Position numbers and translations under genes: made by a program. The notes beneath the pieces are model-generated. The model ran no database searches, was not told the DNA's origin, and was given only the letters and a program-made list of their open reading frames with translations. A stretch of 64,000 nt of DNA from Eledone cirrhosa (Eukaryota), in assembly GCA_964016885.1 (NCBI GenBank), contig OZ024743.1:125488001-125552000 (forward strand), given 5' to 3'. Positions 7,385-63,694 of the stretch are shown piece by piece. Within the stretch, counting starts at the first letter, position 1, and every line of letters starts with the position of its first letter.

Positions 7385-7780
7385 TTACCATTGCTGCAAT
7401 ATAAAATTTTATGTTCTCAGAAAAAACCCCCAAAAACTCTGTCTTTAGTTAGTATTTTACCGAGCATTGAAAAACTACGCTCAACATTAACTGATGTAGT
7501 TTGACATTTAAACAAGAGACTGTAGTCCATTGGAGATATTGATAGGTTTTCCATTCGGTAAATTGATCCTAGATCATTTTCTTGCAGCCTAGAACTCAGA
7601 TACTTTTTTATTTGGCACGGATTTGGGGCAAAATTCTAATCAGTAAGACTTTTAAATGTTTCCTCAACTGAATATTGTGAATTCTCTAATTTTTTTTATT
7701 AAATCCTACTGTGGCAAACTCACTTCTATTGTTTGCAAATTTACACATGGTTTGCTTTTTCCATAATAATTCCTCCATCA

Positions 7781-9167
7781 ACGATTCCATTAGATGAGAT
7801 GCAGTTTGGTTTTGTGCCTGGGAAGAGTACAACAGATGCCCTATTCTTGGTGAGACAATTGCAAGAGAGGTTCTTAGAGAAAAATAAGCCACTATACTTA
7901 GCCTTTGTTGACCTAGAGAAGGCCTTTGATAGGGTACCCCGATCTGTCATCTGGTGGTCCCTAAGGAAACTAGGTGTTGAGCAATGGCTTGTGAGGACAG
8001 TGCAAACTTTGTACAGAGGTACTCTCAGTAAAGTCAGGGTAGGAATGGAGTTTAGTGAGGAATTCCAGATACAAGTAGGAGTACATCAAGGTTCGGTCCT
8101 CAGCCCGCTCTTGTTCATTATAGTCCTCCAAGCCATAACAGAGGAGTTTAAGACTGGCTGTCCATGGGAACTTCTCTATGCTGACGATCTGGTTCTTATA
8201 GCAGAATCAGTAGAGGAGCTAGAGAATAAATTCTGGCTTTGGAAACAGCAGTTGGAAGCAAGAGGACTGAGAGTGAACCTAGCTAAGACAAAAGTGTTGA
8301 TGAGTAGAAAAGAGGACAAAACTCTGATTCCGTCAAGGAAATGGCCATCTTCAATATGCAGAAAAGGAACTGGCATAAATTCTATAAAATGCACACAATG
8401 CAGATCCTGGGTACACAAGAGATGTAACGGGATAGCAGGCTAACTAACAGGTAGGGAGAAATATGTATGCCATAGATGTACAGGGAAATTAGACAGTAGA
8501 AGTCGCATTGATAGACACATTTTTCAGATGCAGGAGGGTGCTATAGAAGTGGTGGATAGCTTCCGGTACCTAGGAGATCAGATTAGCATGGGAGGAGGGT
8601 GTTCCAGGGCCATAGTATCTAGAATAAGGACAGGTTGGAAGAAGTTTAGGGAGCTGCTTCCTCTGCTAACGAAGAAGGGTTTCTCCCTGCACACGAAAGG
8701 CTGGTTGTATGATGCCTGTGTGAGGAGCGCGATGCTGCATGGTAGTGAGACATGGGCAGCAACTGCAGAGGATATGCGACAGCTGGAGAGAAATGAGGCA
8801 AGCATGCTCCGTTGGATGTGCAGTGTAAATGTGCGTGAACGACCCAACATGAATATGTTGAGAGAGAAACTGTATCTGAGAGGATAGAATGTAGTGTACG
8901 GGAGAGGAGACTGAGGTGGTATGGACATGTGATGTGCATGGAGGATAACTGATGGGTGAAGAAGTGCCAGGAAATGCCAGCTGAAGGAAGACGTGGTAGA
9001 CCACGAAAAACATGGGCAGAGGTGGTGAGAACAGACCTCAGATCGTTGAAGCTCACGGTGGAGATGACGAAGGACCGTGACGAGTGGAGAGATGCTGTGC
9101 TGAATAAGACCCGTCCCACCCTTGCGAGCAGTGAAGAGCAGACATAAAATGATGATGATGATGATGA
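7781..9167 (+). mobile_element. 5'-truncated RTE LINE (RT domain and C-terminus), decayed
   Basis: QFGF, FVDLEKAFDRV, GVHQGSVLSPLLF, LLYADD, FRYLG; in-frame stop at 8441; (GAT)n tail. Confidence 0.95.
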
Positions 9168-9278: not shown

Positions 9279-9313
9279 CTTCTGATGACGGACTTGTGTC
9301 CGAAACGTTAAGG
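9279..9313 (+). ncRNA. Minimal type-I hammerhead ribozyme motif (Penelope-type)
   Basis: CTT-CTGATGA-C-GGAC(TTGT)GTCC-GAAA-CG-TTA-AGG; downstream tail shared with the copies at 46640 and 35118. Confidence 0.75.
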
Positions 9314-11520: not shown

Positions 11521-14375
11521 TATATCGCATACAGTCGAAACGTTTTTTTTTCCTTCATGTTAGGAATGGCATCCAGGAATAGAGACAATGCCAAAAAAGA
11601 GTTGAGGGGTTACTTCAGTTGTGTCAGCTACCCAACAAGCTTTCTAATGCTGGTGCCATGATAAAACACACTCAGTACACTCTGTAAAGTGGTTGTTGAT
11701 AGGAAAGGTTTCCAGCCATAGAAAATTTACCAAACAAATAGATAGGAGAACTTTTGAGTTGTTACAAAGACAGGGCAACCTCCCTAAAAGTGCTGAAGCA
11801 TATTGCATGTAAGTGATGTGTGGCCCCCAGCTCATCATAGTTGCCAGTAGCTCTGACTAAGTACTGACTTGGTTTGTGACAACCAAGCCAACCTTTACTA
11901 GTGTGGAAAACAGTCGTTAAATGATGATGATTATAAGACTCATTTGACAATAACCTACAAACTATACTATAAAGTTAACAAAATATATTTACACTGTTGA
12001 CTGAAATGCCATGACTTCAAAACCTGCTGCATGAAGTAGGATGCATATTATCTCATTGTTTCAGTCTTTCTTACAGAAAATAGGCTCACATTTGGGTAGT
12101 TCATGTTAGATAGGGCATCAACAACACGACAATAAACATTTTAAGACCATTTATCCTGCTAAAACCGAGGGTAACCTTGCAAACTTCATGACAGGTCTCA
12201 CACTCATCATCAGGTCCTTTTTGAAGTAACGTTTTATGGTCAGGTAATCTTCCTAGCACCAACCCTTTTAGATACTTATGACATGCATAGATATGGTGTG
12301 CCTATTCTAAACTAGATACACACAGCATAACCAGAGCTTCCAGCATCTCTTTTTTTCTTTTAATGAATGTATGTGGTGAGTTGTTAGAATGTCAGATAGA
12401 ATGCTTTATGGTTTTCATTTCGGCTCTCTGCTCTTGGCATTCAAATCCCACCGAGGTCAACTTTGCCTTTCATCCTTTCGAGGTTGTTAAAAAAGTACCA
12501 GTCTAGTACTGGGGTCAAATTCTTCCTCTATATCTCTCTCTCTCTCTCATTTTCTCTCTTTCACTTTCTATCTTTCTCTGAAAGAAATCTGCTGTACTCA
12601 GGTCTGAAGAGGGATGGGCTCCGCCAGGCTTAAAAAATGCCCAAGAAACGGTGTATGTCAACACCGCCCCACCCCCTACACACACACACACACACACACA
12701 AGACTATATCAGGAGTTATGGGACCATACATACATATGTGAGATGACCAGCTTCAGCAGATATCTTGAGATCAATATGCTAAGTTATAGCTTATTTGGTA
12801 TGGAGAGAACAGAGAATATAACACCCTTATAAAATCATAATTGAGCAGTGCAGCAGAGATTGTTGCTATAGAAATCAACTGAGAAGTTTAACTGATTAAG
12901 AACTACATGGTCAGAGACGAAGTGGTTGCGACAGATTTACCAGATCTCCTATAACAAATCATTAGATGAAATCAATGATTATTGTTAACTGCAGTGCACA
13001 AAACAACCGTGCCATATATTAGAGTGAAAAAAATAATGGCAAGTCTGTAAAAAAAATATATATATATATTTATATTGAATCAATTTTGGAATAGTGGTGT
13101 GGTTGAAATAATACAGATTTTATGAATAACCTTGGTTCATAGCAGAACCTAAATTCAGCATTGCAAGTTAATAAAATACTTGTTAATTGTACAGCATATC
13201 AACAGCTTAACTTTTAATGTCCTACATAAAATTGTATTAGCAATACATTCTTGAAAAATACAAAACAGCATTATGACTGCATCATATAAAAATTGAGGTC
13301 TTTACTGTAATATTGCAAAATTTCAGCATAGTCTGTCCAGCAGTAAATATACTATACAGATTTGAATTAACCAACCTATTTTAAAATATTTTCTTCCAAA
13401 TCATTAAGAGTTTAATAATAGTTGAAGCAAAATGGTTAAATGGATAAGGTACTGTTCCTAAATCATAAGTTTAAATGCACTGAAGCCATTTCTGTCCATA
13501 TACAAAATACCCCAGTAAAATGTATTCATTGATGATCATCCTAAGGATGCTTTTCATCATTATCTTATATCACTGATAATCTATTTGTTAAATATATTGA
13601 ATAAGTTTAGTGAATCCATGCTTTAATTCAAAATATTAATGGCAACTTGCTGTATATAATGCATACATGCTTCCCTACTACTTCATTACAACAGAATTGC
13701 ACATGCAAGTAGTTAAAATTTCACAACAATCTCTTCTATATGGGAAAATGGCAATGATATTATAGGAAAAGAAAGCTAATATATGGGTGATGAATTAGCT
13801 GAATCATTAAAACAATGACCAAAATGCCTTAGGGTACATAGTTAGAGCCCTGTACATCCTGAATTGTTGTTGTTTCTTTTTAAAATAATATATTTATCAA
13901 GTATTGGGGTTCAGTTTAATTGACATATTGCTATCCCCAAATTTGAAGCCCTGTTATAATATCAGAAAACAATATTTAGAAAAGCATCAAAACTGATAAA
14001 AATTTCTTTATATTTGAATTCAGACTTTAGGAGACTTATCAAATATACTGATCAATATATGATCAATATCTATATGATTACTATTTAAGATATGTGATTT
14101 CAGTGTAGCTCAGGGGTTCAAAACCTTTTCACTACCAAACACCCTCATTTTTTATATGAATCTTCTCTCAGAACCCCTACTACAGTCCCCTACCCTTCCA
14201 GTGTATTATTCAGCAAGAATAACAAAAAAAGAGAAATATTGATACTTAGAGGAGAATTGTTATCCAGTAACATGTACATATATTTTTAACTCAATACTTT
14301 GACCTTAGGAACCTCTGTTCTAGCTATATAAGGCATGCTAGGTAGCTATGCATCATTTGAGAATCAGAATACAGC

Positions 14376-26490: not shown

Positions 26491-26521
<31 letters not shown>

Positions 26522-26562
26522 CGATATTAAACAAATGGAAACTACATTTATAAAACCATATT

Positions 26563-26628
26563 TATTTCATTATATATATTTCAGGGATATCATATTAAAA
26601 ATATGGTATGCCCTCTTCAGACAAAATA
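26563..26628 (-). ncRNA. Hammerhead motif (left arm of inverted repeat 26520-27016)
   Basis: TATTTTGT-CTGAAGA-GGGCATACCATATT..AATATGATATCCCT-GAAA-TATATA-TA-ATGAAATA. Confidence 0.75.
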
Positions 26629-26759
26629 CAATATATAAACAGTTTTATAAATAAATTTGACATACCTTGGAAAATTTACAACTTCCATTTAAAAAGTTGT
26701 TATGGTAGTGAGAATGTTAATGACAGTTAGAAAGAAAGACGGAGAAAAAAGGAAAAAAG

Positions 26760-26863
<104 letters not shown>

Positions 26864-26907
26864 TTTAAGGGTATGTCAATATTTATTTATAAAACTGATC
26901 TATATTA

Positions 26908-26972
26908 TATTTTATCTGATGAAAGCACACCATAATTTAACTTGGTGTCCTTGAAATATGTATAATGAAATA
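26908..26972 (+). ncRNA. Hammerhead motif (right arm)
   Basis: TATTTTAT-CTGATGA-AAGCACACCA..TGGTGTCCTT-GAAA-TATGTA-TA-ATGAAATA. Confidence 0.75.
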
Positions 26973-27101
26973 AATATGGTTTTATAAATATAGTTTCCAT
27001 TTGTTAATATATCGTATTTTTACTCCAATAATTTGTTGAGTGCTTTATATCAGTTATAAAAATATTTGCTTGTTGTATCCCAACAATTTAAATAGAACTT
27101 C

Positions 27102-27320: not shown

Positions 27321-28240
<920 letters not shown>

Positions 28241-28286
28241 ATTAATTCAAACTATTAACAAAAATAGACATTCGTGTGATCAAGTA

Positions 28287-28353
28287 TATTTTATTATACA
28301 TATTTCAGAGGTACTGAGCTAACTTCAACAGTACGTCCTCATCAGATAAAATA
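28287..28353 (-). ncRNA. Hammerhead motif in element 28238-28612
   Basis: TATTTTAT-CTGATGA-GGACGTACTG..CAGTACCTCT-GAAA-TATGTA-TA-ATAAAATA; about 35-bp inverted repeat 28238-28273 / 28486-28521. Confidence 0.8.
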
Positions 28354-28667
28354 AGATGATGCATGACATACTCTGACATAGTAGATGGTTAAGATTCAGT
28401 CATGGTAGTGAATAAGATATGACAAAACTCAATATTTATATACCTTAAGATTGAGACATGAAAAAATTTACATATAATACAGAGGGAATGTCTATTTTTG
28501 TTAATATTTTGAATTAATATTAATAACTCCGGAAAACCAAACTGTTGAGTGCTTCCAATCTATTGTAAAACTCATTCTTTGATTTATTCATTGAACCTTG
28601 TTTAACCTTTAAATATATATATATGTATATATACATATATATATATCAGCATCATCATCATCGTATG

Positions 28668-28727
<60 letters not shown>

Positions 28728-28873
28728 TGTTATACTTGGAGAGGGTCATATTGTGGTAATAATAACAGAACACACTGTTTGGTTGGTTTTCGCTACTGCA
28801 TCTTTTATATCTCCATAGTTAATTTATTTGGCAATTAATGTTTATCATTGACTGACCAACGGTTAAAAATACA
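28728..28873 (+). repeat. Short TGT...ACA solo-LTR-like repeat (inverted relatives at 29255-29459 and 49273-49373)
   Basis: Shared start TGTTATACTT(T/G)G.GAGGGT.AT.TTG. Confidence 0.45.
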
Positions 28874-29610
28874 GATATAGATATATATACATATATATAT
28901 ATAGCCTAGCAAAGTTCTTTCGTTGCACATCTGCAACATCATCAGTAGTACAATTATCATGTTTCCTCCTATTGTGTTGTATTGTAATGTTCACGCCATT
29001 TTTATTTTATTTATTTATTTATTTATTTTTGTCTCCGTCTCTGCGCATGCGTTTGCGTGTGTGTATAATGTTTGGTGTGTGTGTTCGCGTTTGGGTGTAT
29101 GTGTTTTGATTTTTGTATTCTATCTTTGTTTACTAGTGTGTGTTTATATGTGTTTGTTGTTATTGTACTTGTGTATATATTTATTTATATTTCTCTTAAG
29201 TCAGTATTGTTTGTTTGGGTATGGTTGTTGTTGTTATTCCATTCATTTTTTTTCTGTTTAACTTTGGTTTTCTAAGCTCTATTTCGCTAGCTTCTCTGAT
29301 TTGCCTACCCGTTGGGTCATATCTATGTTTAGATATTATTTTAATTTCTATGTTGTCTATGTTACCGTCATGTTTTTGTCTGGAGTGTTCGTATAATACT
29401 GTTCTGTTATTATTTCTGGCAATATTATTACAACAATATAACCCTCCCCAAGTATAACAATATTTGTTTCGACACACGATTTCATATCAAAAACGTTGCA
29501 AAAGAAATATATATATATATGTAGGAAGTGAGTTTTATTGTAGCACAATAAAGCAATGCAAATATTGGATAAGTAGCACTCTACAGTTTGTAGGACTGGA
29601 GTATATATAA

Positions 29611-29943
29611 TATAAGATCAAAAGATGGTTAAAAGATTTCCAAGTATTTTATTATGCGCATTTCAAAAACAAATAACATCATGAGATGATATCTGCGTTT
29701 TCATCAGATAAAATAGGGATACATGATACGAAGGTTAAAAAACACTTGTGAATAGTGAAGTTTTAAATCAACATATCATATGTTGATTTAAAACTTCACT
29801 ATTCACAAGTGTTTTTTAACCTTCATATCATGTATCCCTATTTTATCTGATGAAAACGCAGTTATCACCTCATGATGATATTTGTTTTTGAAATGCGCAT
29901 AATAAAATACTTGGAAATCTTTTAACCATCTTTTGATCTTATA
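29611..29943. repeat. Near-perfect 333-bp palindrome carrying two hammerheads (29645-29715 minus, 29839-29909 plus)
   Basis: Arms of 166 bp around a single C at 29777; TATTTTAT-CTGATGA-stem II-GAAA-TGCGCA-TA-ATAAAATA in each arm. Confidence 0.9.
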
Positions 29944-29951
29944 TATATATA

Positions 29952-30739
29952 TGGATGAATCTATATCCTGATTCTTTTTGAGTTGAGTTTAAATTATTTT
30001 TCCCACATCTTACGTTAACTATTTTTCCCATTTTGACGCTATAGTGACTTATATATTATGGAATACTGTTGGCTTTTTGCTACAATATTTTCTATACCTT
30101 TCATTTATATATTTATACTCGGATTTCTTTTCTAGAGTGCTTAAATTATTTGTGACCCAGTATTTAAAAAAAAAAACCGCGATAATATTGATTTTTGCTG
30201 AACTCCTTATTGTAGAGTTTTTTTCGGAATGTTTTTGACTGTTGTTTCTTGTAAACAAACATTTGTCTCATTCTGACGTCACCAGCCCTGTTTTTCCACA
30301 TGTGCGTTTTATTTTCATAATCACGCATGATGGTAAACTAGCCTGCTTTTAATTCCCTTTTTGGCATATTAATCAGTGAGTAATTTGGCTATCGAGTTGA
30401 GCTCTGCTGAGGATCGAATTCCAACCGTGACCATCTCCACTGAAAGTTTTCGTGAAATGGTCTTCAAGACTATACAGAGCATTTGTAGTTGTCCCAAATT
30501 GAAGGATGACTATTTTAAACTTTATTTTATCATGAGTTAAGGCTCTATTAATTTTTCCCTGGATTTCACTAAATTCTGTTGGATGAATCTATATCCTGAT
30601 TCTTTTTGAGTTGAGTTTGAATTATTTTTCCCACATCTTACGTTAACTATTTTTCCCATTTTGACGCTATAGTCACTTATATATTATGGAATACTGTTGG
30701 CTTTTTGCTACAATATTTTCTATACCTTTCATTTATATA

Positions 30740-30740
<1 letters not shown>
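29952..30740. repeat. About 160-bp direct repeat (29952-30112 and 30580-30740)
   Basis: GGATGAATCTATATCCTGATTC...CATTTATATA occurs twice, with few differences. Confidence 0.9.
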
Positions 30741-30807
<67 letters not shown>

Positions 30808-30854
30808 ATCAAAAGATGGTTAAAAGATTTCCAAGTATTTTACAAAAACAAATA

Positions 30855-31050
30855 TTTACAGCTGAGTAAACTGGAGCAATGTGAAATAAAGTGTCTTGCT
30901 CAAGGACACAACACATCACCCAGTCTGAGAATTGAACTCACAACCTTTCGATTGCAAGGTCAATATATATATATATATGAGGACGGGTGATGTGTTGTGT
31001 CCTTGAACAAGACACTTTATTTCACATTGCTCCAGTTTACTCAGCTGTAG
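30855..31050. mobile_element. SINE family 2 fold-back pair
   Basis: 30855-30920 is the near-exact reverse complement of 30986-31050. Confidence 0.85.
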
Positions 31051-31793: not shown

Positions 31794-34700
31794 TATCATC
31801 ATCATCGTTTAACATCTATCTTCCACTCTAGCATGTGTTAGACGGGAATTGTCCCACTTGAGGCAAGATTGGTCGGGTGACTGTGTCTCGCTTATATAGG
31901 ACTATCTGTCAGGTTTTCTATGGCTGGGTGCTCTTCCTAACACCAACCACATTTACAGTGTGGACTGGGAGTTTTTTACCGTGTTACCTACACGGCCACA
32001 TTACAGCGTGAACTGTGTTTTTTTGTTGTGACACTTACACAACCTCATTAGTTTGGACTGGATGTTGTGGTACCAACATAACTTTACAGTGAAAGAGTGG
32101 TGTTGGTGGGAGGATGGAGTAGGGGTGTATATTTGGTTAAGAGGTGCCTATTTACAGTAGGTTTTGCTTTGTACATAGGTAAGGCGGGTCTTCTGTATTA
32201 CTGTGTGGCGCCAAAGATCTCAGTCCAGTGACATTGTCTGAGAGAGGTGCAAGTGTGTAAGGTCAGAATTTATCAAATTGTCCCAGATTTTTCTGGGTCT
32301 ACCTACTCCGTAACTTCCATCAATTTTGATCACTCTGCACTTTTTTATACAGCTGTCGTCTGTCATGCGCATCACATGACCATACCAACATAGTTTTCTC
32401 TCAAGTAAACAGCATCTGATCTCTCTTATTCCTAATTTCTCACTTAGTTCATTTATGTTTTGCCATTCGCTACACATGCAACGGAGCATGCATGCTTCGT
32501 TCCTTCGTCTGCGCAGGTCCTCTGCACACAATGCCCATGTCTCACTGCCATGTAACATTGCTGTTTGTATACAGGCATCATACAATCTTTCATTTTTAGA
32601 GAGAAACCTTTTGTGGCCAACAGCGGTATAAGCTCTCTGAACTTTTTTCCATCCCGTTCTAACCCTGGCTACTGTACTTTCAGAGCAGCCTCCACCACTG
32701 CTGATTTTGTCACCCAGGTAACGGAAGGTGTCCACTATTTCTATAGAACCATCTGGGCAATAGAAGGAGCTAGTATCCTGTCTGCACTTGCTACTTATTG
32801 CACCTGCGCATCGGCACACATAAAATCTACGTTCTTAGATAGCTTACCTGTGATCCCACTACATCTTTTATATACCCATAGTTTGCAATTGGGACATAAA
32901 ATGGAATTTCTACCTACTCCTTTCCTACACACTGAGCATGGCCATTTCCCAGAGGGCACCTGTGCCCTATTTTCATTTCTACATACTAGAACTTTAGTCT
33001 TAGACAAGTTAACTTTAAAGCCTTTTGATTCTAGGCCATGCTTCCATGTTTGCAATTTCTTCTCTAGTTTCAGCTATGAGAGTTAGATTCAGCTATGAGA
33101 GTTAGATCATCTGCGCATAGAAGTTCCCCTGGGCAGCCAGTCTTAAACTCCTCTGTTATAGCCTGAAGGTGAATAATAAATAGGAGGGGGCTAAGGACAG
33201 AGCCTTGATGAACATCAACTTTTACGCTAAATTCTTCACTATATTCATTGTTAATTCTAACCTTGCTGATTGTTTCTTTATACATGGCTTGTATAGCTCT
33301 CACAAGCCATTCATCTACATGTAGTTTTCTAAGAGCCCACCAGATAATGGAGCGGGGGACTCTGTCAAAGGCTTTCTCCAAGTCAACAAAAGCTAAGTAG
33401 AGGGGTTTACTTTTAGCTAGGTACTTCTCCTGTAGTTGTTGTACAAGGAAAAGAGCGTCTGTGGTACTTTTACCTGACACAAACCTAAACTGCATTTCAT
33501 CTAGATCAATTCGATCTCTGATTAGTTGTGCTATAACTCTTTCTGTGGCCTTCATGACCTGGTCAACTAACTTAATGCCTCTATAGTTTCCCCTATCTAG
33601 AGCATCCCCTTTACCCTTGTAGCAGTTAATGATGATGATACTATGCCAATCATTTGGTATGACCCCATTCTGTATTACTTGGTTTACTATCCGGGTGACC
33701 ATTGTATGCCCCACCATTCCAGATGCTTTCAACATCTCAGCAACTATCTCCAAAGGCCCAACTGCCTTGCCTGTCGTCATATCTTTGATTGCCTTACTTA
33801 TTATACTACCTTTAACTTGCACAGCTGGTCCCTCTATTGGATCGATTTGGGGCAGACTATCTTTTTCCCATTTTTTCTCTTCATTTAGTAATCTCTCGTA
33901 GTGACACTTCCAAACTACCTTCTTATCAGTATCAGTGAGGGCAAGTACACCATCATCATTACAGACACACTTCTCCCCGACAATATCACGCTTTTCCTTG
34001 ACACATTGTCTTGCAATCCTGAACACCTCACGTTTTTGGTCCTCGAGTTGTAGAACATGCTTGGACTTTCTATCCTCTGCTTCCCTTCTTGCAAAGTACA
34101 CTTGTCTCCTAGCTTCTCTCCTGGCCACTTGATAGTGTTCTCTACTTTCCCCCCATACCCCCCATCCTGCCATACTTTCCAAGCCTGCTTTTTGGCCTTG
34201 ATTTTCTCCTCCACCTTACTGTTCCACCACCAAGTTACTTACCTCCTGCCTATAGGACAGCTCCAGTCACAGATTTCATCTGTCGCCTTCAGCAGGTTAA
34301 CTTTCAAGAATTCCCACTGTTCCTCAATATTGTATGTCTCTAATTGCTCTTCCTTACTGTCAAAAGCATCAAGTAATATACTTTTAGATTTGTTACTGGC
34401 TGTGGGGTCCTTCAACTTCCATATTCTTCTCCTCAGGGTAGTCCTCCTCTGTTGTCGAGTACGTCTAGTCCTGACTATGAGGCCACTAACTATGAGGCTA
34501 TGTTGGGAGGTGCATTCTTCACGGGGGAGGGATTTAGTATTTACAATAGACACTCTGTCACATCTTCTAGTAAAGGATATAATCTATCTGGCTGGTGTGT
34601 TCCCCTGATCTATAGGTGATCAAGTGATTGTCTCGTTTTTTGAAGTTTGTGTTACAGATAGTTAGGTTATTAGCATCACAGAATTCCAGGATTCTGAAGC

Positions 34701-35541: not shown

Positions 35542-35542
<1 letters not shown>

Positions 35543-35618
35543 GTGGTGGAGTTCATAGAGGTGGCATGGAGGAGTTGTTATTTATCTCCTCCATGCCACC
35601 TCTATGAACTCCACCACA
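35542..35618. repeat. Perfect 33-bp stem hairpin with an 11-nt loop
   Basis: TGTGGTGGAGTTCATAGAGGTGGCATGGAGGAG and its exact reverse complement. Confidence 0.95.
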
Positions 35619-45360: not shown

Positions 45361-45741
45361 TAAATATAAGTATGTATACGTACATACATATATGTATACA
45401 TACGCACAGTAGTATGTATATATATATATATACATGCACACATGTATATATATGTACGTATGGATTCACCGAACATTTATTATAATGCTCGGTGTGTTTG
45501 TAAACAAACATCCCGAATTAAGCCGTAGTGTCTAGCAACCATCGTTGCTCATTTGTTCAACACTGACAAAAGAACGCTGTACTAGTTTCAAGCTTATTAG
45601 CTATCGTCACACCGAGCATTATAATAAATGTTCGGTGAATCCATACGTACATATATATATGTGTGCATGTATGTATATATATATACATACTACTGTGCGT
45701 CTGTATACATATATGTATGCACGTATACATACTTATATTTA
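45361..45741. repeat. About 135-bp inverted repeat around a 110-bp spacer containing a clipped hammerhead
   Basis: 45361-45496 vs 45608-45741; spacer minus strand gTGACGA-T-AGC(TAATAA)GCT-T-GAAA-CTAG-TA. Confidence 0.8.
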
Positions 45742-47056: not shown

Positions 47057-47235
47057 CCTGCCAACTTCTGAAAACCCAAACGAAGAGTACCATGAAAAAA
47101 TAGTGCCAGAAAATGGGGAGATTTTACATAATAAAAGCTATACCCATTTTCGTAAGAGAAGACATGTCTCACCCACTCCCAAGCCTATTGGAAATCTCCC
47201 CGTCGGACGAAGAGAGTTGACAGGTCTCTGTGTAT

Positions 47236-47462
47236 ATATATTTAATATTATTAAGGCTTTAAAATGAGTCATTTTACTCTGGAGTTTCGCTTGTTTATCA
47301 CGGGGTCATCAGACAATTTGTCTGATAATGATAAACAGACGAAACTCCCAGAGTAACAGGACTCACTTTTTAGCCTTATTAATATTGAATATTAAAACTC
47401 TTCTTCGGTATTGAGTACTCCTTTCTCTCAGCCGTGTTTTCGTTCGTTGTCTTCGCTTTGTT
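47236..47462. repeat. Decayed fold-back with two degenerate hammerheads
   Basis: Apex ATCAGACAATTTGTCTGAT; GAAACTCC(C)AGAGTA in both arms; the right core is mutated to CTGATAA. Confidence 0.65.
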
Positions 47463-47540
47463 TATATATATATATAAATGAAGTAATTCCGTCGGAAAGG
47501 TCCAGGAAAAAAGAGTGCTCTATGTAGGTTACAGAGCTTA

Positions 47541-47793
47541 ATAGTTATGTAATAAACAACATAAGGCATTATTTCATTTACCAGTTGTTTCTTGAAAGCA
47601 AACAAATTTTGCCTTCAATCATCAGAATGAAAAAATCCTGGTGTATTTATTGAATGAAAAAATCCTGGTGTATTTATTGTCAATAAATACACCAGGATTT
47701 TTTCATTCTGATGATTGAAGGCAAAATTTGTTTGCTTTCAAGAAACCACTGGTAAATGAAATAATTGCCTTATGTTGTTTATTACATAACTAT
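47541..47793. repeat. Palindrome with two hammerheads (47572-47632 minus, 47701-47761 plus)
   Basis: TTTCATT-CTGATGA-TTGAAGGCAAA(ATTTG)TTTGCTTTCAA-GAAA-CC(ACT)GG-TA-AATGAAA; 27-bp tandem duplication in the left arm. Confidence 0.9.
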
Positions 47794-47820
47794 ATATAGA
47801 GATATATATATATATATAAT

Positions 47821-48151
47821 ATAAAATCAAAAGATGGTTAAAAGAGTTCCATGTATTTTATTATGCGCATTTCAAAAACAAATATCATCATGGGATGATA
47901 TTTGCGTTCTCATCAGATAAAATAGGGAGACATGATATGAAGCTTAAAAAACACTTAAAAAACACTGCTCAACATATATATTGATTTAACAAGTGTTAAA
48001 TCAACATATATGTTGATTTAACACTTCACTGCTCGCAAGAGTTTTTTAAGCTTCATATCATGTCTCCCTATTTTATCTGATGAGAACGCAAATATCATCC
48101 CATGATAATATTTGTTTTTGAAATGCGCATAATAAAATACATGGAACTCTT
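47821..48151. repeat. Palindrome with two hammerheads (47854-47924 minus, 48069-48139 plus); paralog of 29611-29943
   Basis: Same ribozyme and same apex AAATCAACATATATGTTGATTT. Confidence 0.9.
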
Positions 48152-48409
48152 ATATATTATATATATATTATATATATTATATATATATATTATATATATA
48201 TATTATATATATATTATATATATATTATATATATATTATATATATATATTATATATATTATATATATATATTATATATATATTATATATATATTATATAT
48301 ATATTATATATATATATTATATATATTATATATATATATATATATTATATATATATATTATATATATATATATTATATATATATATTATATATATATATT
48401 ATATATATA

Positions 48410-48542
48410 TACGTCCCTTTACAATCTGAGTTCAAATCCCGCCGAGGTTGACTTTGCCTTTCATCCTTACTGGGTCGATAAAATAAAGTACCAGTAATGC
48501 ACTGGGTATTTGTTGGCCTTGTGCCTAAAATAGAAACAATTA
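48410..48542 (+). mobile_element. 5'-truncated SINE family 1
   Basis: B-box and core. Confidence 0.85.
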
Positions 48543-49262: not shown

Positions 49263-49699
49263 GCTCCCAAATACAGTATAAATATATATTTAAATATATA
49301 ATATAATAAATTGAAGTGAAAGCAACTGGTGCGTGTGTTTCTTATTGGCAACATGACCCTCCCAAAGTATAACACTATATATATAATATATTATATATAT
49401 TATATATATATATATATATTATATATATATATATTATATATATATATATTATATATATATATATTATATATATATATATTATATATATATTATATATATA
49501 TATATATTATATATATATATATTATATATATTATATATATATTATATATATATATATTATATATATATATTATATATATATTATATATATATATATTATA
49601 TATATATATTATATATATATTTAGTATCGCTAAAAAGCTTTCTCCGATATTGTATTTATTTATTATATATGTTATATATATATTATATATATTATATAT

Positions 49700-49798
<99 letters not shown>

Positions 49799-49956
49799 TT
49801 TACGTATCGAGAAAGAGAGAAAAAAAGGAGGGATAGGTGATACATATAGTTATTTGCCAAGTAGCGTATGCCAAAGGTGCTCGATACTAGTGCCGGCAGT
49901 ATTAAATATTCGAAGTGTTAATATTTAGTGGGCTAGAGAGTTAGCAGAGCGTAAGC

Positions 49957-50180
49957 ACGTGGGAAAGTGAAAAATCGGAGAATAGACCGTTAAAACATGT
50001 TTATTGAAAATATCACCTACGTACGTTTCGCCCAGTTGGGCTTCTCAAGGACATAAACTATATAAGGAACACTTGTGACTGTTTATGCCCTTGAGAAGCC
50101 CAACTGGGCGAAACGTACGTAGGTGATATTTCCAATAAACATGTTTTAATGGTCTATTCTCCGATTTTTCACTTTCCCAC

Positions 50181-50182
<2 letters not shown>
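49957..50182. repeat. Inverted repeat (102-bp arms) with two U3-A8 variant hammerheads (50011-50055 minus, 50084-50128 plus)
   Basis: CC-TTGAGAA-GCCC(AACT)GGGC-GAAA-CGTACG-TA-GG in both arms. Confidence 0.75.
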
Positions 50183-52957
<2,775 letters not shown>

Positions 52958-53682
52958 CAGAAAAGAGGAAGGCCGTTGACAGAGAACGCTAACTTCTGGC
53001 ATTAATGAAAATATCTTACAACTATTTTGTAAGAAATCGTTGCTCTATTGAACGACTACTCTTCCCCCTCTCACGCAACGCGTGTCCTATAATCCATTTC
53101 CATCATTTCAAAATTGAATTTGTGACTTTTTTTATGACTTTTGGAATCTATTGAAAGTTTGCTTAGGAGAATTTTTTTTTTTCACAGCAGACATTATATA
53201 AACTTGACACAGTTCGATCTAAAAACACATACATTTAACACTTAACATTTCAGTTTCGGTTTCAGGGGCACAGGAAACAAAAAAAAAAAGCCTTCCAATT
53301 TTCTAAATATATGGATTTAAGTTTTTTTCAGTTAATCTTGTATTTATATTTGGTAATTTGCCCAAAACACCTTTAGATTTCTGGTGTGATTTTACTGCAA
53401 GCTGCAATATAGTAGGATTTTACTTTAAAACAAATTATTTAGTTAAATAGAGTTTATAGGGATGAACACATCGATCATTCGTTTTGTTTTGTGCTGTTTT
53501 TGTTTTTACATTCGAAAAGAAGGTATTAAATATTATGAAATATTATGTTGAAATATACTGGATAAAAACATGACTTTGTTTTTTTATTTGTCATCCTTTG
53601 CCCTTTATATATTTCTACCGTATTTCTACCGTATTTCTGAAACACATTAGTAATTTACTACATATCTCACAAAGCTTCATAT

Positions 53683-53771
<89 letters not shown>

Positions 53772-53814
53772 CAAAATATTAATAAATGAAAAATATTCTC
53801 ATAACCAAAATATA

Positions 53815-54022
53815 TATTTTATTATACATATTTCAAAGGTACAATGGTGTTTCAGTACGTTTTCATCAGATAAAATATGAGAGATTGGATATGCGACATA
53901 CCGCTAAGGTTTTGATTATTCAATTCCTGTAGTGGAATTGAATAATCAAAACCTTAGCGGTATGTCGTATATCCAATCTCTCATATATTTTATCTGATGA
54001 AAACGTACTGAAACACCATTGT
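53815..54022. repeat. Palindrome (arms 53841-53927 / 53934-54022) with a full hammerhead on minus (53815-53877) and a truncated one on plus
   Basis: TATTTTAT-CTGATGA-AAACGTAC..GTACCTTT-GAAA-TATGTA-TA-ATAAAATA; the right copy stops inside stem II. Confidence 0.85.
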
Positions 54023-55289: not shown

Positions 55290-55344
55290 AGTCTTGTCTG
55301 ATGATCCGATTAATATTCAGGAGAAACTCCAGTATAACAAGACT
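55290..55344 (+). ncRNA. Hammerhead motif (family of 47236-47462)
   Basis: AGTCTTGT-CTGATGA-TCC..GGA-GAAA-CTCCAGTA-TA-ACAAGACT; 8-bp stem I, weak stem III. Confidence 0.65.
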
Positions 55345-56142
55345 CATCATTTAGCCATAATATAGAATATTGTGTGTGTAGGCGCGCATTTATGTCCCGC
55401 GACTTAACGCTTTGATAAAATAAGTACCATATTTGAAAAGCACTGCCGTTGATATGATCGACTAAATCCTGTTAAAGCGCTGCTTCAGCTTGAACACAAT
55501 CTGATGGCTGAAACTAGTAAAAGAATACAGTATCTAATTCTCTTTAGAACTTTGCGTTGACTCATTGTTTATTCTTCGTTTTATTGTTTGTTGGAAATAG
55601 TGTCAGCCTGCCTGCTCATCTCTATTGATTTGTGTTATTAATTTTCCCCTTTATATAAACGAATTAACATGCTCCAAGCCTACATGATATCATTTAGTAG
55701 AGTTTTTTTAATTTTCCGATTAAAAAGAAAAATATTGATTTCTTTGAATGTTGTTGCATGTAACAACAATCTACGGTATCAAAAAGTTAGCATCTCAAAG
55801 ACGTCAACATTAAAGATGTCTTACTGATAGATTTTTCGCCTTCTAGCTTAGGTGATCGCCTAATAACAATCCCCGCTATAGTGTGCATGTTTTTTTTTCT
55901 TTTCTTTTTTTTTTTTCTTTTCTTTTTTTTTTTTCTTTATGACTCATTTTTAGTGTTATTGTCCATTTACCCTTAACTTCACCACAGAATCCAGGATTGG
56001 GAGGTCACTAACTTAATATTTTAAAAACATAAATTCTAGCTGATTGGTTAGAAGAATATCTTGTTACTGTAGCTGAATCTCTAATGAAATACTTTCTCTA
56101 TTTCAATTAATTAATGAAGAATTTTGAGCGATTTACTAACAT

Positions 56143-60687: not shown

Positions 60688-60859
60688 ATGTGTGCAGGCA
60701 TACACGTAAGATACTGGTAACTCGGATTGTGGCAACTATGTCACCATGGAAAGCAATGTAAAATGATGATGATTATACATACATATGTATATATACACAC
60801 ATCGTCATCTTCATCATCATATATATATATGTCTATATATATATATATATATATATATA

Positions 60860-62943
60860 AATCGATCCAATAGAGGAACCAGCAGTACCAGTTGAAGGTA
60901 GTTTAATAAGTAAGGCAATCAAAGATATGAAGACAGGCAAGGCAGCTGGGCCTTCGGAGATAGTTGCTGATATGCTGAAAGCATCTGGAATGGTGGGACA
61001 CACTATGGTCACCCGGATAGTAAACCTAGTAATACAGAATGGGGTCATACCAAATGACTGGCGTAGCAGCATCATCATTAACTGCTACAAGGGTAAAAGA
61101 GATGCCCTAGACAGGGGAAACTATAGAGGCATTAAATTAGTTGACCAGGTCATGAAGGTCACAGAAAGAGTTATAGCGCAACTAATCAGAGAGCGAATTG
61201 ATATAGATGAAATGCAGTTTGGGTTTGTGTCAGGTAAAAGTACCACGGACGCTCTTTTCCTTGTACGACAACTACAGGAGAATTACCTAGCTAAAAGTAA
61301 ACCCCTCTACTTAGCTTTTGTTGACTTGGAGAAAGCCTTTTGACAGAATCTCCTGCTCCATTATCTGGTGGGTTCTTAGAAAACTAGGTGTTGATGAATA
61401 GTTTGTGAGAGCTATACAAGCCATGTATAAAGAAACAGTCAGCAGGGTTAGAATTAACAATGAATATAGTGAAGAATTTAGCGTAAAAGTTGGTATTCAT
61501 CAAGGCTCTGTCCTTAGCCCCCTCCTATTTATTATTCACCTTCAGGCTATAACAGAGGAGTTCAAGACCGGCTGCCCATGGGAACTTCTATATGCAGATG
61601 ATCTAAGTCTCATAGCTGAATCAATGGCTGAACTAGAGAAGAAATTGCAAACATGGAAGCATGGCCTAGAATCAAATGGCCTTAAAGTTAATTTGTCTAA
61701 GACTAAAGTTTTAGTATGTAGGAAGGAAAATAGGGTACAGGTACCCTATGGGAAATGGCCATGCTCAGTGTGTAGGAAAGGCGTAGGCAGAAATTCCATA
61801 TGTCCCAAATGCAAACTATGGGTACATAAAGGATGTAGTGGGATCACAGGTAAGCTATCTAAGAATATAGATTTTATATGTGGCCGATGCTCAGGTGCAA
61901 TAAGTAGCAAGTGCCCACAGGATACTAGCTCCTTCTATTGCCCAGATGGTTCTATAGAAATAGTGGACACCTTCCGTTACCTGGGTGACAAAATCAGCAG
62001 TGGTGGAGGGTGCTCTGAAAGTACAGTAGCCAGAGTCAGAATGGGATGGAAAGAGTTCAGAGAGCTTATACCACTATTGGCCACTAAAGGTTTCTCCCTA
62101 AAAATGAAAGGCAGATTGTATGATGCCTGTATACGAACAGCAATGTTACATGGCAGTAAGACATGGGCATTGCATGCAGAGGACCTGTGCAGACTGGAAA
62201 GGAACGAAGCATCCATGCTCCATTGGATGTGTAATAGTAATATACGCGAACGGCAAAGCATAAATGAACTAAGTGAGTAATTAGGAATAAGAGGGATCGG
62301 ATGCTGTTTACTCGAAAGAAGACTACGTTGGTATCGTTACGAGATGCGCATGAAAGACGACAGCTGTATAAAAAAGTGCAGGGTGATCAAAATAGATGGA
62401 AGTTACGGAGTAAGTAGACCCAGAAAAACCTGGGACGATTTGATAAATTCCGCCCTTACACACTTACACCTCTCTAGACCGAGAGCTTTGGCGCTATGCA
62501 GTAATACAGAAGACCCGCCTTGCCTATGTACAAAGCGAAACCTACAGTCAGTAGGCACCTCTTAACCAAATATATACCCCATCCCACAGCCCCTACTGCA
62601 CCCCACCCCTTACTCCCACCAACACAACCCTTTCTCTGTAAAGTTATGTTGGTACCACAACATCCAGTCCAAAATAAATGAGGTCGTGTAGGTGTCTCGA
62701 CAAAAAAAACACACAGTCTACGCTGTAATGTGGTCGTGTATGTAACACAGTAAAAACCTCCCAGTCCACACTGTAAACGTGGTTGGTGTTAGGAAGGGCA
62801 TCCAGCCATAAAAAAACCTGCCAGACAGTCCTATACGAGCGAGACATGGTCACCCGACCAATCTTGCCTCAAGTAGGACAATTCCCGACTAAACATATGC
62901 TAGCGTGGAAGATAGACGTTAAACGATGATGATGATGATGATG
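60860..62943 (+). mobile_element. 5'-truncated RTE LINE (same subfamily as 31794-35020), decayed
   Basis: KAAGPS, NYRGIKL, LLYADD, FRYLG; frameshift near 61340; 3'UTR and (GAT)n tail. Confidence 0.95.
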
Positions 62944-63112
62944 GTATATATATATATGTATATATATATGACCAAAGATTAATATGGTTCATTGATTACT
63001 CAATGAATATAGTTTTACAATAGATTAAAAGCACTCTACAAAAAAGTTTTCTGGAGTTATTAATATTATTCAGAATATTAATAAATGAAGACATTCACAT
63101 AATCAAAATATA

Positions 63113-63178
63113 TGTTTTATTATATATATTTCGAAGGTACTGTGCTGGTTTTTCAGTACGTCCTCGTCAGATAAAATA
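63113..63178 (-). ncRNA. Hammerhead motif in element 62968-63390 (paralog of 28238-28612)
   Basis: TATTTTAT-CTGACGA-GGACGTACTG..CAGTACCTTC-GAAA-TATATA-TA-ATAAAACA; 33-bp inverted repeat 63065-63097 / 63356-63388. Confidence 0.8.
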
Positions 63179-63539
63179 CATGAATGATGTATGACATACC
63201 CCAACCGTCTTGATGGTTCAATTCTAGTATTGGCAGTGATTTATTACAACAAATCTCAACATTTATATACCACAAATAATATGATAAACTTAAATTTAAT
63301 AAAGAAGAGGATGTGGAGCGAGATATGGGTATAAGGAGGGGGTGAGTAAATTATATGAATGTCTTCATTTATTAATATTCTGAATAATTTGTATATATAT
63401 ATATATATATATATATTCAGGAGATAAGGATGCAATTCACTTCAAGCACTCAACTTCATATTACTTCTTTAAAATAAGGAAGATGGAGTATATTTATAAA
63501 GAGGAAAATGTGATGTTGTTAGTGTCTTTTATTAATTGA

Positions 63540-63590
63540 GCTGTTAAACATTTTTCCATGATGATAATTGTCATGATTTCTTCAGACAGC
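63540..63590 (-). ncRNA. Hammerhead motif in fold-back 63416-63670
   Basis: GCTGT-CTGAAGA-AAT-CATGA..TCATG-GAAA-AATGTT-TA-ACAGC; the right arm keeps only GAAA-TATGTA-TA-ACGGC. Confidence 0.65.
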
Positions 63591-63694
63591 AAAATTGAGT
63601 AAAAGGAAATATGTATAACGGCTCAATTAATAAAAGACTCTAACATCTACAACTTAACATTTTTCTTTTTATATATGTGTATATATATATATGC

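Follow-up and report, generated by a model that had tools for sequence, protein, structure and literature searches.

Palindrome B (47821-48151) and its paralog A (29610-29944) are, to judge from their sequence, most likely short insertions of a Penelope-like element (PLE), each consisting of two 5'-truncated, hammerhead-bearing pseudo-LTR ends placed head to head in (TA)n with their 3' ends outward. Both lie in the window, the 64,000-nt stretch of Eledone cirrhosa contig OZ024743.1 analysed here. Both arms of each palindrome were probably written from one source at insertion, sharing the haplotype of that source, and then decayed independently (probability roughly 0.83). Priming of two cDNAs, within the PLE insertion reading, is put forward tentatively as the route by which A and B formed, with a chance just short of even.

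Organization of palindromes B and A

The features of the two palindromes and of a related fragment are as follows.

47821-48151: palindrome B, two inverted arms, paralog of A by arm alignment
47821-48008 (-): B left arm, putative PLE pseudo-LTR-type segment; sense strand oriented from apex to the left
48009-48151 (+): B right arm, same putative PLE segment; sense strand oriented from apex to the right; lacks the outermost ~21 nt
47991-48026: B apex, perfect 36-nt palindrome with a 0-nt loop, centre 48008/48009
47957-47990 (+): patchwork insertion in the B left arm, three short pieces with B-type alleles
47790-47820: (TA)n tract at the B left end, common to B and the neighbouring palindrome E
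48152-48410: TA-rich satellite at the B right end
29610-29944: paralog A, arms of 167 nt each around a 1-nt loop at 29777, predicted hammerhead motif in each arm
29521-29609 (-): probable 3' extension (tail) of the A left arm only, ending in (TA)n
30808-30855 (-): fragment C, 3' end of the A/B family; A-type alleles; 12 nt of the ribozyme GAAA/stem III deleted

B is a real palindrome, as the first-pass annotation had it, but not a clean one. Its right arm ends about 21 nt early, at the TA-rich satellite, and its left arm contains a patchwork of about 34 nt that replaces about 10 nt and has its sources at 47943-47955, 48027-48034 and 48001-48023. The apex of B reads ACATA/TATGT within an 18-bp perfect stem, and that of A reads ACATAT-C-ATATGT, with the unpaired C at 29777 as its centre and a 47-bp perfect stem. 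The two apices coincide within 3 nt; the earlier description of them as identical but for the central bases is incorrect, as they differ by 3 nt and not by one. In both palindromes the shorter arm is nested in the longer. The ends are asymmetric, A having a one-sided extension and B a short right arm. No constant target-site duplication is discernible at either locus, the ends of which lie within (TA)n, and symmetric terminal inverted repeats with such a duplication are absent from both. The tail of A (about 85 nt) resembles the 3' extension of a sister family, described below, in the same register; the score was reached by 2 of 1000 shuffles in the comparison with sister unit H and by 37 of 1000 in that with sister unit I.

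Several other repeats adjoin these features. Palindrome E (47541-47793), of an unrelated family, lies directly to the left of B and has a hammerhead in both arms, a 1-nt loop at 47680 and, in its left arm, a 26-nt duplication beside the apex. Long TA-rich satellites with periods of 11-15 nt occupy 48152-48410 and 49300-53000, and GC content is 3.6% at 50001-52000. Inside the TA run to the right of A, an element at 29954-30745 has 166-nt direct repeats (98% identity, 628-nt period) and a hammerhead at 30407-30474 (+), and looks like a partial tandem or retrozyme-like unit. Directly after fragment C, at 30857-31049, there is an inverted duplication of a presumably SINE-like segment with a TA run in the spacer, which is possibly a host RNA captured by the same machinery. 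A dispersed SINE-like repeat, which may be an octopus SINE, is found at 12440, 19315, 22601, 23015, 39377, 39562, 48431, 56211 and 57722.

Hammerhead ribozyme motifs

Each of the four arms of A and B encodes an intact type I hammerhead motif that reads outward from the apex. The two motifs of B are as follows.

47854-47924 (-): predicted type I hammerhead motif, B left arm; core CUGAUGA at 47916, with the cut predicted after 47862
48069-48139 (+): predicted type I hammerhead motif, B right arm; core at 48077, with the cut predicted after 48131

In A, the cores are at 29707 (-) and 29847 (+) and the predicted cuts fall after 29653 and 29901, respectively. Core-to-core spacing within the locus is 140 nt in A and 161 nt in B. 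Stem I has 8 bp, stem II is long, and stem III has 2 bp and a palindromic GCGC loop; CUGAUGA, GAAA and an AUA site are all present. The motif contains the complete conserved core (CUGANGA, GAAA, NUH and three stems). A descriptor scan of the window found 13 hammerhead cores, compared to 0-1 in each of 30 Markov controls, and a second descriptor found 12, again with 0-1 in the controls. Twelve of the 13 cores are located in the arms of eight inverted structures, and all 12 read outward. Among nine motifs from the A/B family and the sister family, 99.3% of cells pair and two-sided changes occur at four of six stem II pairs. This covariation score was reached by 0 of 500 shuffles, a figure that is not a probability because the sequences are related and the structure was drawn from them. 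The presence of a covarying hammerhead in every arm suggests selection on the RNA.

A search of the whole window against Rfam gave no hammerhead match at the gathering score (0 hits of any family). With a threshold of E≤10, the region 47150-48250 gave 89 hits, none of them to a hammerhead family; these are mostly hairpin-shaped miRNA models far below their cut-offs and were discounted as matches to generic hairpins. Left unconstrained, the monomer does not take the hammerhead core as its minimum-energy fold, which lies 1.3-1.7 kcal/mol below the hammerhead-constrained fold, as expected for motifs that are thought to work as dimers (PMC4209133). A joint in the sequencing reads with its start at 29902, which is the predicted cut +1, is a hint only of self-cleavage (three reads, 3-nt ambiguity).

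Further inverted structures and hammerhead-like matches are present elsewhere in the window. Palindrome J (47230-47400) is older, with arms about 80% identical and a hammerhead-like core recognized by eye; a related piece is found at 55294-55362. Palindrome K (49957-50182) has arms that are 97% identical and what looks by eye like a hammerhead with the U3-A8 variant of the core (PMC4209133), missed by the descriptors. A decayed inverted unit at 63492-63676 has a hammerhead core at 63585 (-). The inverted repeat at 45361-45741 has a hairpin and a microsatellite tail in each arm and a non-palindromic middle of about 100 nt, and a hammerhead was not found in it. A short TA-flanked hairpin at 35542-35618 lacks a hammerhead core, and a compact hammerhead-like match at 9282-9309, outside any palindrome, was recovered by the relaxed descriptor only.

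Relationship to Penelope-like elements

A and B are assigned to the PLEs on the basis of four non-coding features: a type I hammerhead in a terminal repeat, an inverted 5'-truncated copy in head-to-head orientation, a tail at one end and an AT-rich or (TA)n target. Of 15 hand-picked arm ends, 12 are no more than 15 nt from a TA run, compared to 5.4% of positions. No ORF joined to the A/B family was found in the window, in which the sole PLE-type remnant (in unit P, below) belongs to another family. The window also contains LINE-type RT remnants at 31795-34182, 60859-62936 and 7733-8940 (RVT_1; two with weak PHD-finger matches), including an inverted pair with 89% identity.

Head-to-head inverted pLTRs and junction palindromes have been described in PLEs, and self-priming has been inferred for them (PMC3846280). 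The inverted 5'-truncated copy, the tail at one end, the (TA)n bias and hammerheads in the pLTR are likewise published (PMC8557442; PMC8969392), with a tail length of 30-40 bp, and opposite-strand hammerhead pairs are known at distances of 100-700 bp (PMC4209133). How the tandem and inverted structures form is stated to be undefined (PMC8557442). A purified PLE protein has been shown to cut and extend the two target strands, with two internal start sites that define the tail (PMC11167929).

A and B resemble the EN+ PLEs (Penelope/Poseidon, Neptune and Nematis; PMC3846280, PMC8557442) in their inverted arms, junction palindrome, hammerhead-bearing repeat, 5' truncation, 3' extension at one end and AT-rich or (TA)n targets. 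They differ in having no ORF between or beside the arms, near-equal arms with a recurrent apex, and an extension of about 85 nt, compared to 30-40 bp. The minimal hammerhead pairs of Schistosoma mansoni, which derive from truncated PLEs (PMC4209133), are similar to those of A and B in being type I, with a tiny palindromic helix III, on opposite strands, and in their long helix II, where several copies leave a base unpaired after the core; stem I is 8 bp in A and B, compared to 4-5 bp in the S. mansoni pairs. Arm haplotypes and junction positions are not analysed in the portions of PMC4209133 covered. Non-LTR retrozymes (10.64898/2026.07.22.740005; PMC7229834) are also short, non-coding and PLE-derived, with a type I hammerhead. 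Retrozymes are head-to-tail tandem arrays (10.64898/2026.07.22.740005), whereas the motifs of A and B are inverted and cannot share one sense transcript; the classification of A and B as a retrozyme array was rejected because their motifs are on opposite strands.

Arm haplotypes

The first-pass annotation had observed that the arms of each palindrome share sequence variants, and all six of the motifs that it quoted as common to both arms of a locus were found at the positions given. In the four-arm alignment of A and B, eight columns are common within a locus and different between loci, while none groups left with left and none is crossed. The chance of eight such columns out of eight under a star tree is (1/3)^8 = 1.5e-4. 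Across a 112-nt common core, the two arms differ by 4 nt in A and by 2 nt in B, compared to 9-11 nt between loci. The annotation had proposed a tree of left and right arms from all genomic copies. In a tree of 10 arms, the split between A arms and B arms has support values of 98/99, and a left-only or right-only group occurs in 0% of 200 bootstrap trees. The grouping of arms by locus thus stands. Six arm-private differences (four in A and two in B) are uncorrected. These comparisons concern the two complete loci of the A/B family that were seen, both of them within the 64-kb window.

The A/B family in sequencing reads

Reads and contigs of four of 10 listed sequencing runs were matched to the A right arm (29778-29953, 176 nt). 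Matches were found in 3098 contigs of run X1, 45 contigs of X5 (which carries another organism label), 3475 reads of X8 and 3845 reads of X9. The runs may derive from a relative of the species of the window (best share of words 0.51), and in RAD reads a few loci are over-represented; the summed contig depth of about 1e6 is not a copy number. The A/B family is high-copy and polymorphic. It includes half-length and asymmetric forms, both in the reads and as fragment C, and so is not uniform in length or structure. Pattern scans of metagenome, viral and prokaryotic genome contigs recovered 0 loci of the family.

At the eight sites that separate A from B, the B allele has shares of 0.007, 0.13, 0.73, 0.40, 0.32, 0.75, 0.78 and 0.999 of X1 depth. 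The six shares of 0.13-0.78 suggest ordinary family variants that predate the insertions. The designation of the shared variants as copy-specific was therefore mostly wrong, as both alleles are common in the family at six of eight sites. The A letter at 29917 is rare: the other letter accounts for 99.9% of X1 depth and for 2479 of 2501 reads in X8 and 2929 of 2949 in X9. This rare letter is present in both A arms and in fragment C, and could represent either a small subfamily or a conversion event. The B allele at 29792, within the apical stem, has a share of 0.7% in X1. The A arm-private letters at 29862 and 29868 are alleles of about 1% in X1 that have been left uncorrected. Counts of A>G and T>C in the reads are 14-15 and 9-11, on 56 A and 74 T.

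Asymmetric opposite-strand joints, among the joints listed, connect 29782 to 29902 (three reads) and 29813 to 29882 (five and four reads). In the 29782/29902 joint, one arm ends near the apex site and the other starts at the predicted cut +1. None of the listed joints is symmetric at the apex, which, with reads matched to the right arm alone, is no evidence on apex constancy. The commonest loose end among those listed (1217 and 1642 reads, from two other individuals) continues into the A left flank, 29521-29609, which is on this comparison a probable element tail and not host DNA. These reads could alternatively come from an orthologous locus whose arms have other alleles, a finding that would imply conversion. 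This interpretation was set aside because the flank resembles the sister-family extension, but with modest significance, so that it keeps some probability.

Sister family and unit P

Four units of a sister family and one unit of another family are present in the window.

28237-28625: sister-family unit H; hammerhead in the long arm (-); short inverted arm at 28486-28625, extended 3' by ~100 nt
53775-54018: sister-family palindrome D; apex 53928-53933; arms 82/83 identical
62968-63390: sister-family unit I; hammerhead plus extension in the long arm; inverted tail of 39 nt
26519-27017: sister-family unit G; both arms with a hammerhead; 87% arm identity; middle not palindromic
28724-29507: unit P, another family; putative 5'-truncated PLE with degenerate hammerhead core and tail; short inverted arm
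29238-29411 (-): GIY-YIG C-terminal remnant in P, 58 aa

The four sister-family loci have four different junctions. Arm identity within the locus is 36/37 in H, 38/39 in I, 82/83 in D and 133/153 in G, and identity between loci is 71-88%, with one pair at 67%. The apex of D falls on a near-palindrome that is seen in the unfolded relative I. The long arm of H contains the ribozyme and about 190 nt upstream, and ends at the recurrent TA-rich site. Its short arm continues for about 100 nt further 3', with a local score of 67 to the I extension compared to 16 to H's own long side. Similarly, the short inverted arm of P has a 43-nt extension that is absent from the P long arm. Because the arm-unique sequence of H and P is reciprocal, neither arm can have been copied from the other, barring a subsequent loss of the extension from the long arm. 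One-sided 3' extensions of 43-130 nt, mostly longer than the published tails, are found in A (left arm), H, I and P.

The remnant in P shows similarity to an RT+GIY-YIG protein (37% identity over 52 aa, pairwise E-value: 7e-11). It resembles the C-terminus of several unnamed relatives; in one of these proteins, RT and GIY-YIG match weakly, with scores under the Pfam cut-offs. The remnant itself has no Pfam match, no longer homologue in a word-indexed search and no meaningful PDB match. In the Atlas, GIY-YIG is found in 15% of a cluster at 0.92, which serves as a lead only. From their cysteine linker, the relatives may be Neptune/Nematis-like (PMC8557442).

Proposed model for palindrome formation

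Two-cDNA formation of A and B would proceed in the following way. A PLE RT/GIY-YIG protein, supplied in trans, would nick both strands of a TA tract. Internal start sites immediately 3' of the ribozyme, one proximal and UA-rich and the other distal, would serve to prime two cDNAs on the element RNA, and use of the distal site would leave a tail at one end only. The 3' ends of the two cDNAs would then anneal by microhomology. Where both cDNAs reach the self-complementary sequence ACATAT(C)ATATGT, about 70 nt upstream of the ribozyme core, the product would be a near-perfect palindrome such as A or B. Where one cDNA stops early, a long arm and a short inverted arm would result, as in H, I, P and the read joints. 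The RNA intermediate, the trans-acting PLE protein and the priming route are inferred. LINE-1 twin priming is comparable to this route in its two target-strand primers, single RNA and microhomology-joined cDNAs. Twin priming inverts a non-overlapping upstream part of LINE-1. In the route proposed for A and B, the two cDNAs would instead overlap in the template and give an inverted duplication.

The first-pass annotation had proposed that the second arm is copied from the first by snap-back priming at a fixed hairpin. Under this explanation, which involves the same element and timing, a single cDNA would fold at ACATAT(C)ATATGT and prime its own second strand (self-priming, PMC3846280). A and B alone fit snap-back and two-cDNA priming equally well, and several observations are what a folded cDNA would give: the 0-1-nt loops at A, B and E, the nesting of the shorter arm in the longer in A and B, the position of the D apex on the near-palindrome of unfolded I and the locally templated patchwork beside the B apex. 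A and B do fold at the same short self-complementary site, and a third copy ends near it (joint 29782, three reads); as other junctions occur in the reads and in the sister family, this apex is recurrent but not strictly fixed. The B right arm stops 21 nt before the recurrent end site, as a second strand left unfinished would, and so counts against two-cDNA priming, as would a later loss of extensions from the H and P long arms, which could have occurred. On the other hand, snap-back cannot make H and P, with their reciprocal arm-unique sequence, or the junctions of I, G and the read joints, which are asymmetric; all of these would need a second mechanism. Of the earlier claim, then, a single template at insertion stands, while copying of one arm from the other cannot hold for H and P. 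Two-cDNA priming is favoured because it covers both symmetric and asymmetric units and because PLE protein extends both target strands (PMC11167929); snap-back is the less probable of the two, although a real possibility.

The other route suggested in the annotation was gene conversion. If the palindrome arose once or rarely, its arms could have been homogenised after insertion by conversion or by replication template switching, a known process in inverted-repeat arms (PMC8604942). The A allele at 29917, which is below 1% in three runs and yet found in both arms and in C, would fit such an origin, as would the 0.7% B allele at 29792 in the apical stem and the template switching that is apparent in the B patchwork. 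Conversion is not needed, since six of the eight shared sites are common family variants and the six arm-private differences, two of which were checked and are about 1% alleles, have gone uncorrected. The older units have decayed to arm identities of 87% (G) and 80% (J) and junctions differ among copies, so that homogenisation is improbable as the main cause. A length of about 330 bp, a palindrome of near whole length, TA at both ends and high copy number would also suit a palindromic non-autonomous DNA transposon (MITE or foldback) that moves whole, with symmetric subfamily masters. The palindromic Harbinger repeats of frog (PMC5625713) are comparable in being self-folding, high-copy repeats of 200-330 bp with the potential to form dsRNA. 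A and B lack the symmetric termini and target duplication of palindromic MITEs (A has its one-sided extension and B its short right arm), their junctions vary, half-length and asymmetric forms occur, and the hammerhead in every arm covaries at the RNA level; a transposon of this kind is accordingly a very improbable source. The least probable explanation, to which hardly any weight is given, is a fold-back chimera of library or assembly, or equalization of the arms by polishing. Palindromes are error-prone, and no read or contig was seen to span the apex of B or A. The two arms nevertheless show several differences and unequal ends, at least eight structures of graded age have palindromes that match element boundaries, and opposite-strand joints occur in raw reads from another study. 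Polishing would also impose majority alleles, whereas A keeps a rare one.

Implications

The inverted structure of PLEs and the idea of self-priming are already published, and A and B are an instance of these and not a new system. No arm-haplotype analysis of such elements was found in the open-access main texts searched, and the term "twin priming" was found in none of the four PLE papers covered. A dense, polymorphic family with arm haplotype markers makes snap-back, two-cDNA priming and conversion separable from genome data alone, and two units of the window, H and P, already argue against plain snap-back.

More speculatively, and with considerable doubt, a two-cDNA reaction may make the inverted repeats of PLEs in general, and a self-complementary site built in upstream of the ribozyme would then turn it into a source of thousands of near-perfect hairpins of about 330 bp. 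In Octopus bimaculoides, an exceptional fraction of loci is able to form long near-perfect dsRNA, and A-to-I hyper-editing has been described (PMC5625713). If the proposal is true and the host is an octopus, such hairpins would be a main source of the unusually abundant dsRNA potential and hyper-editing described for O. bimaculoides, and hairpins of the A/B type may supply dsRNA for editing or for small RNAs.
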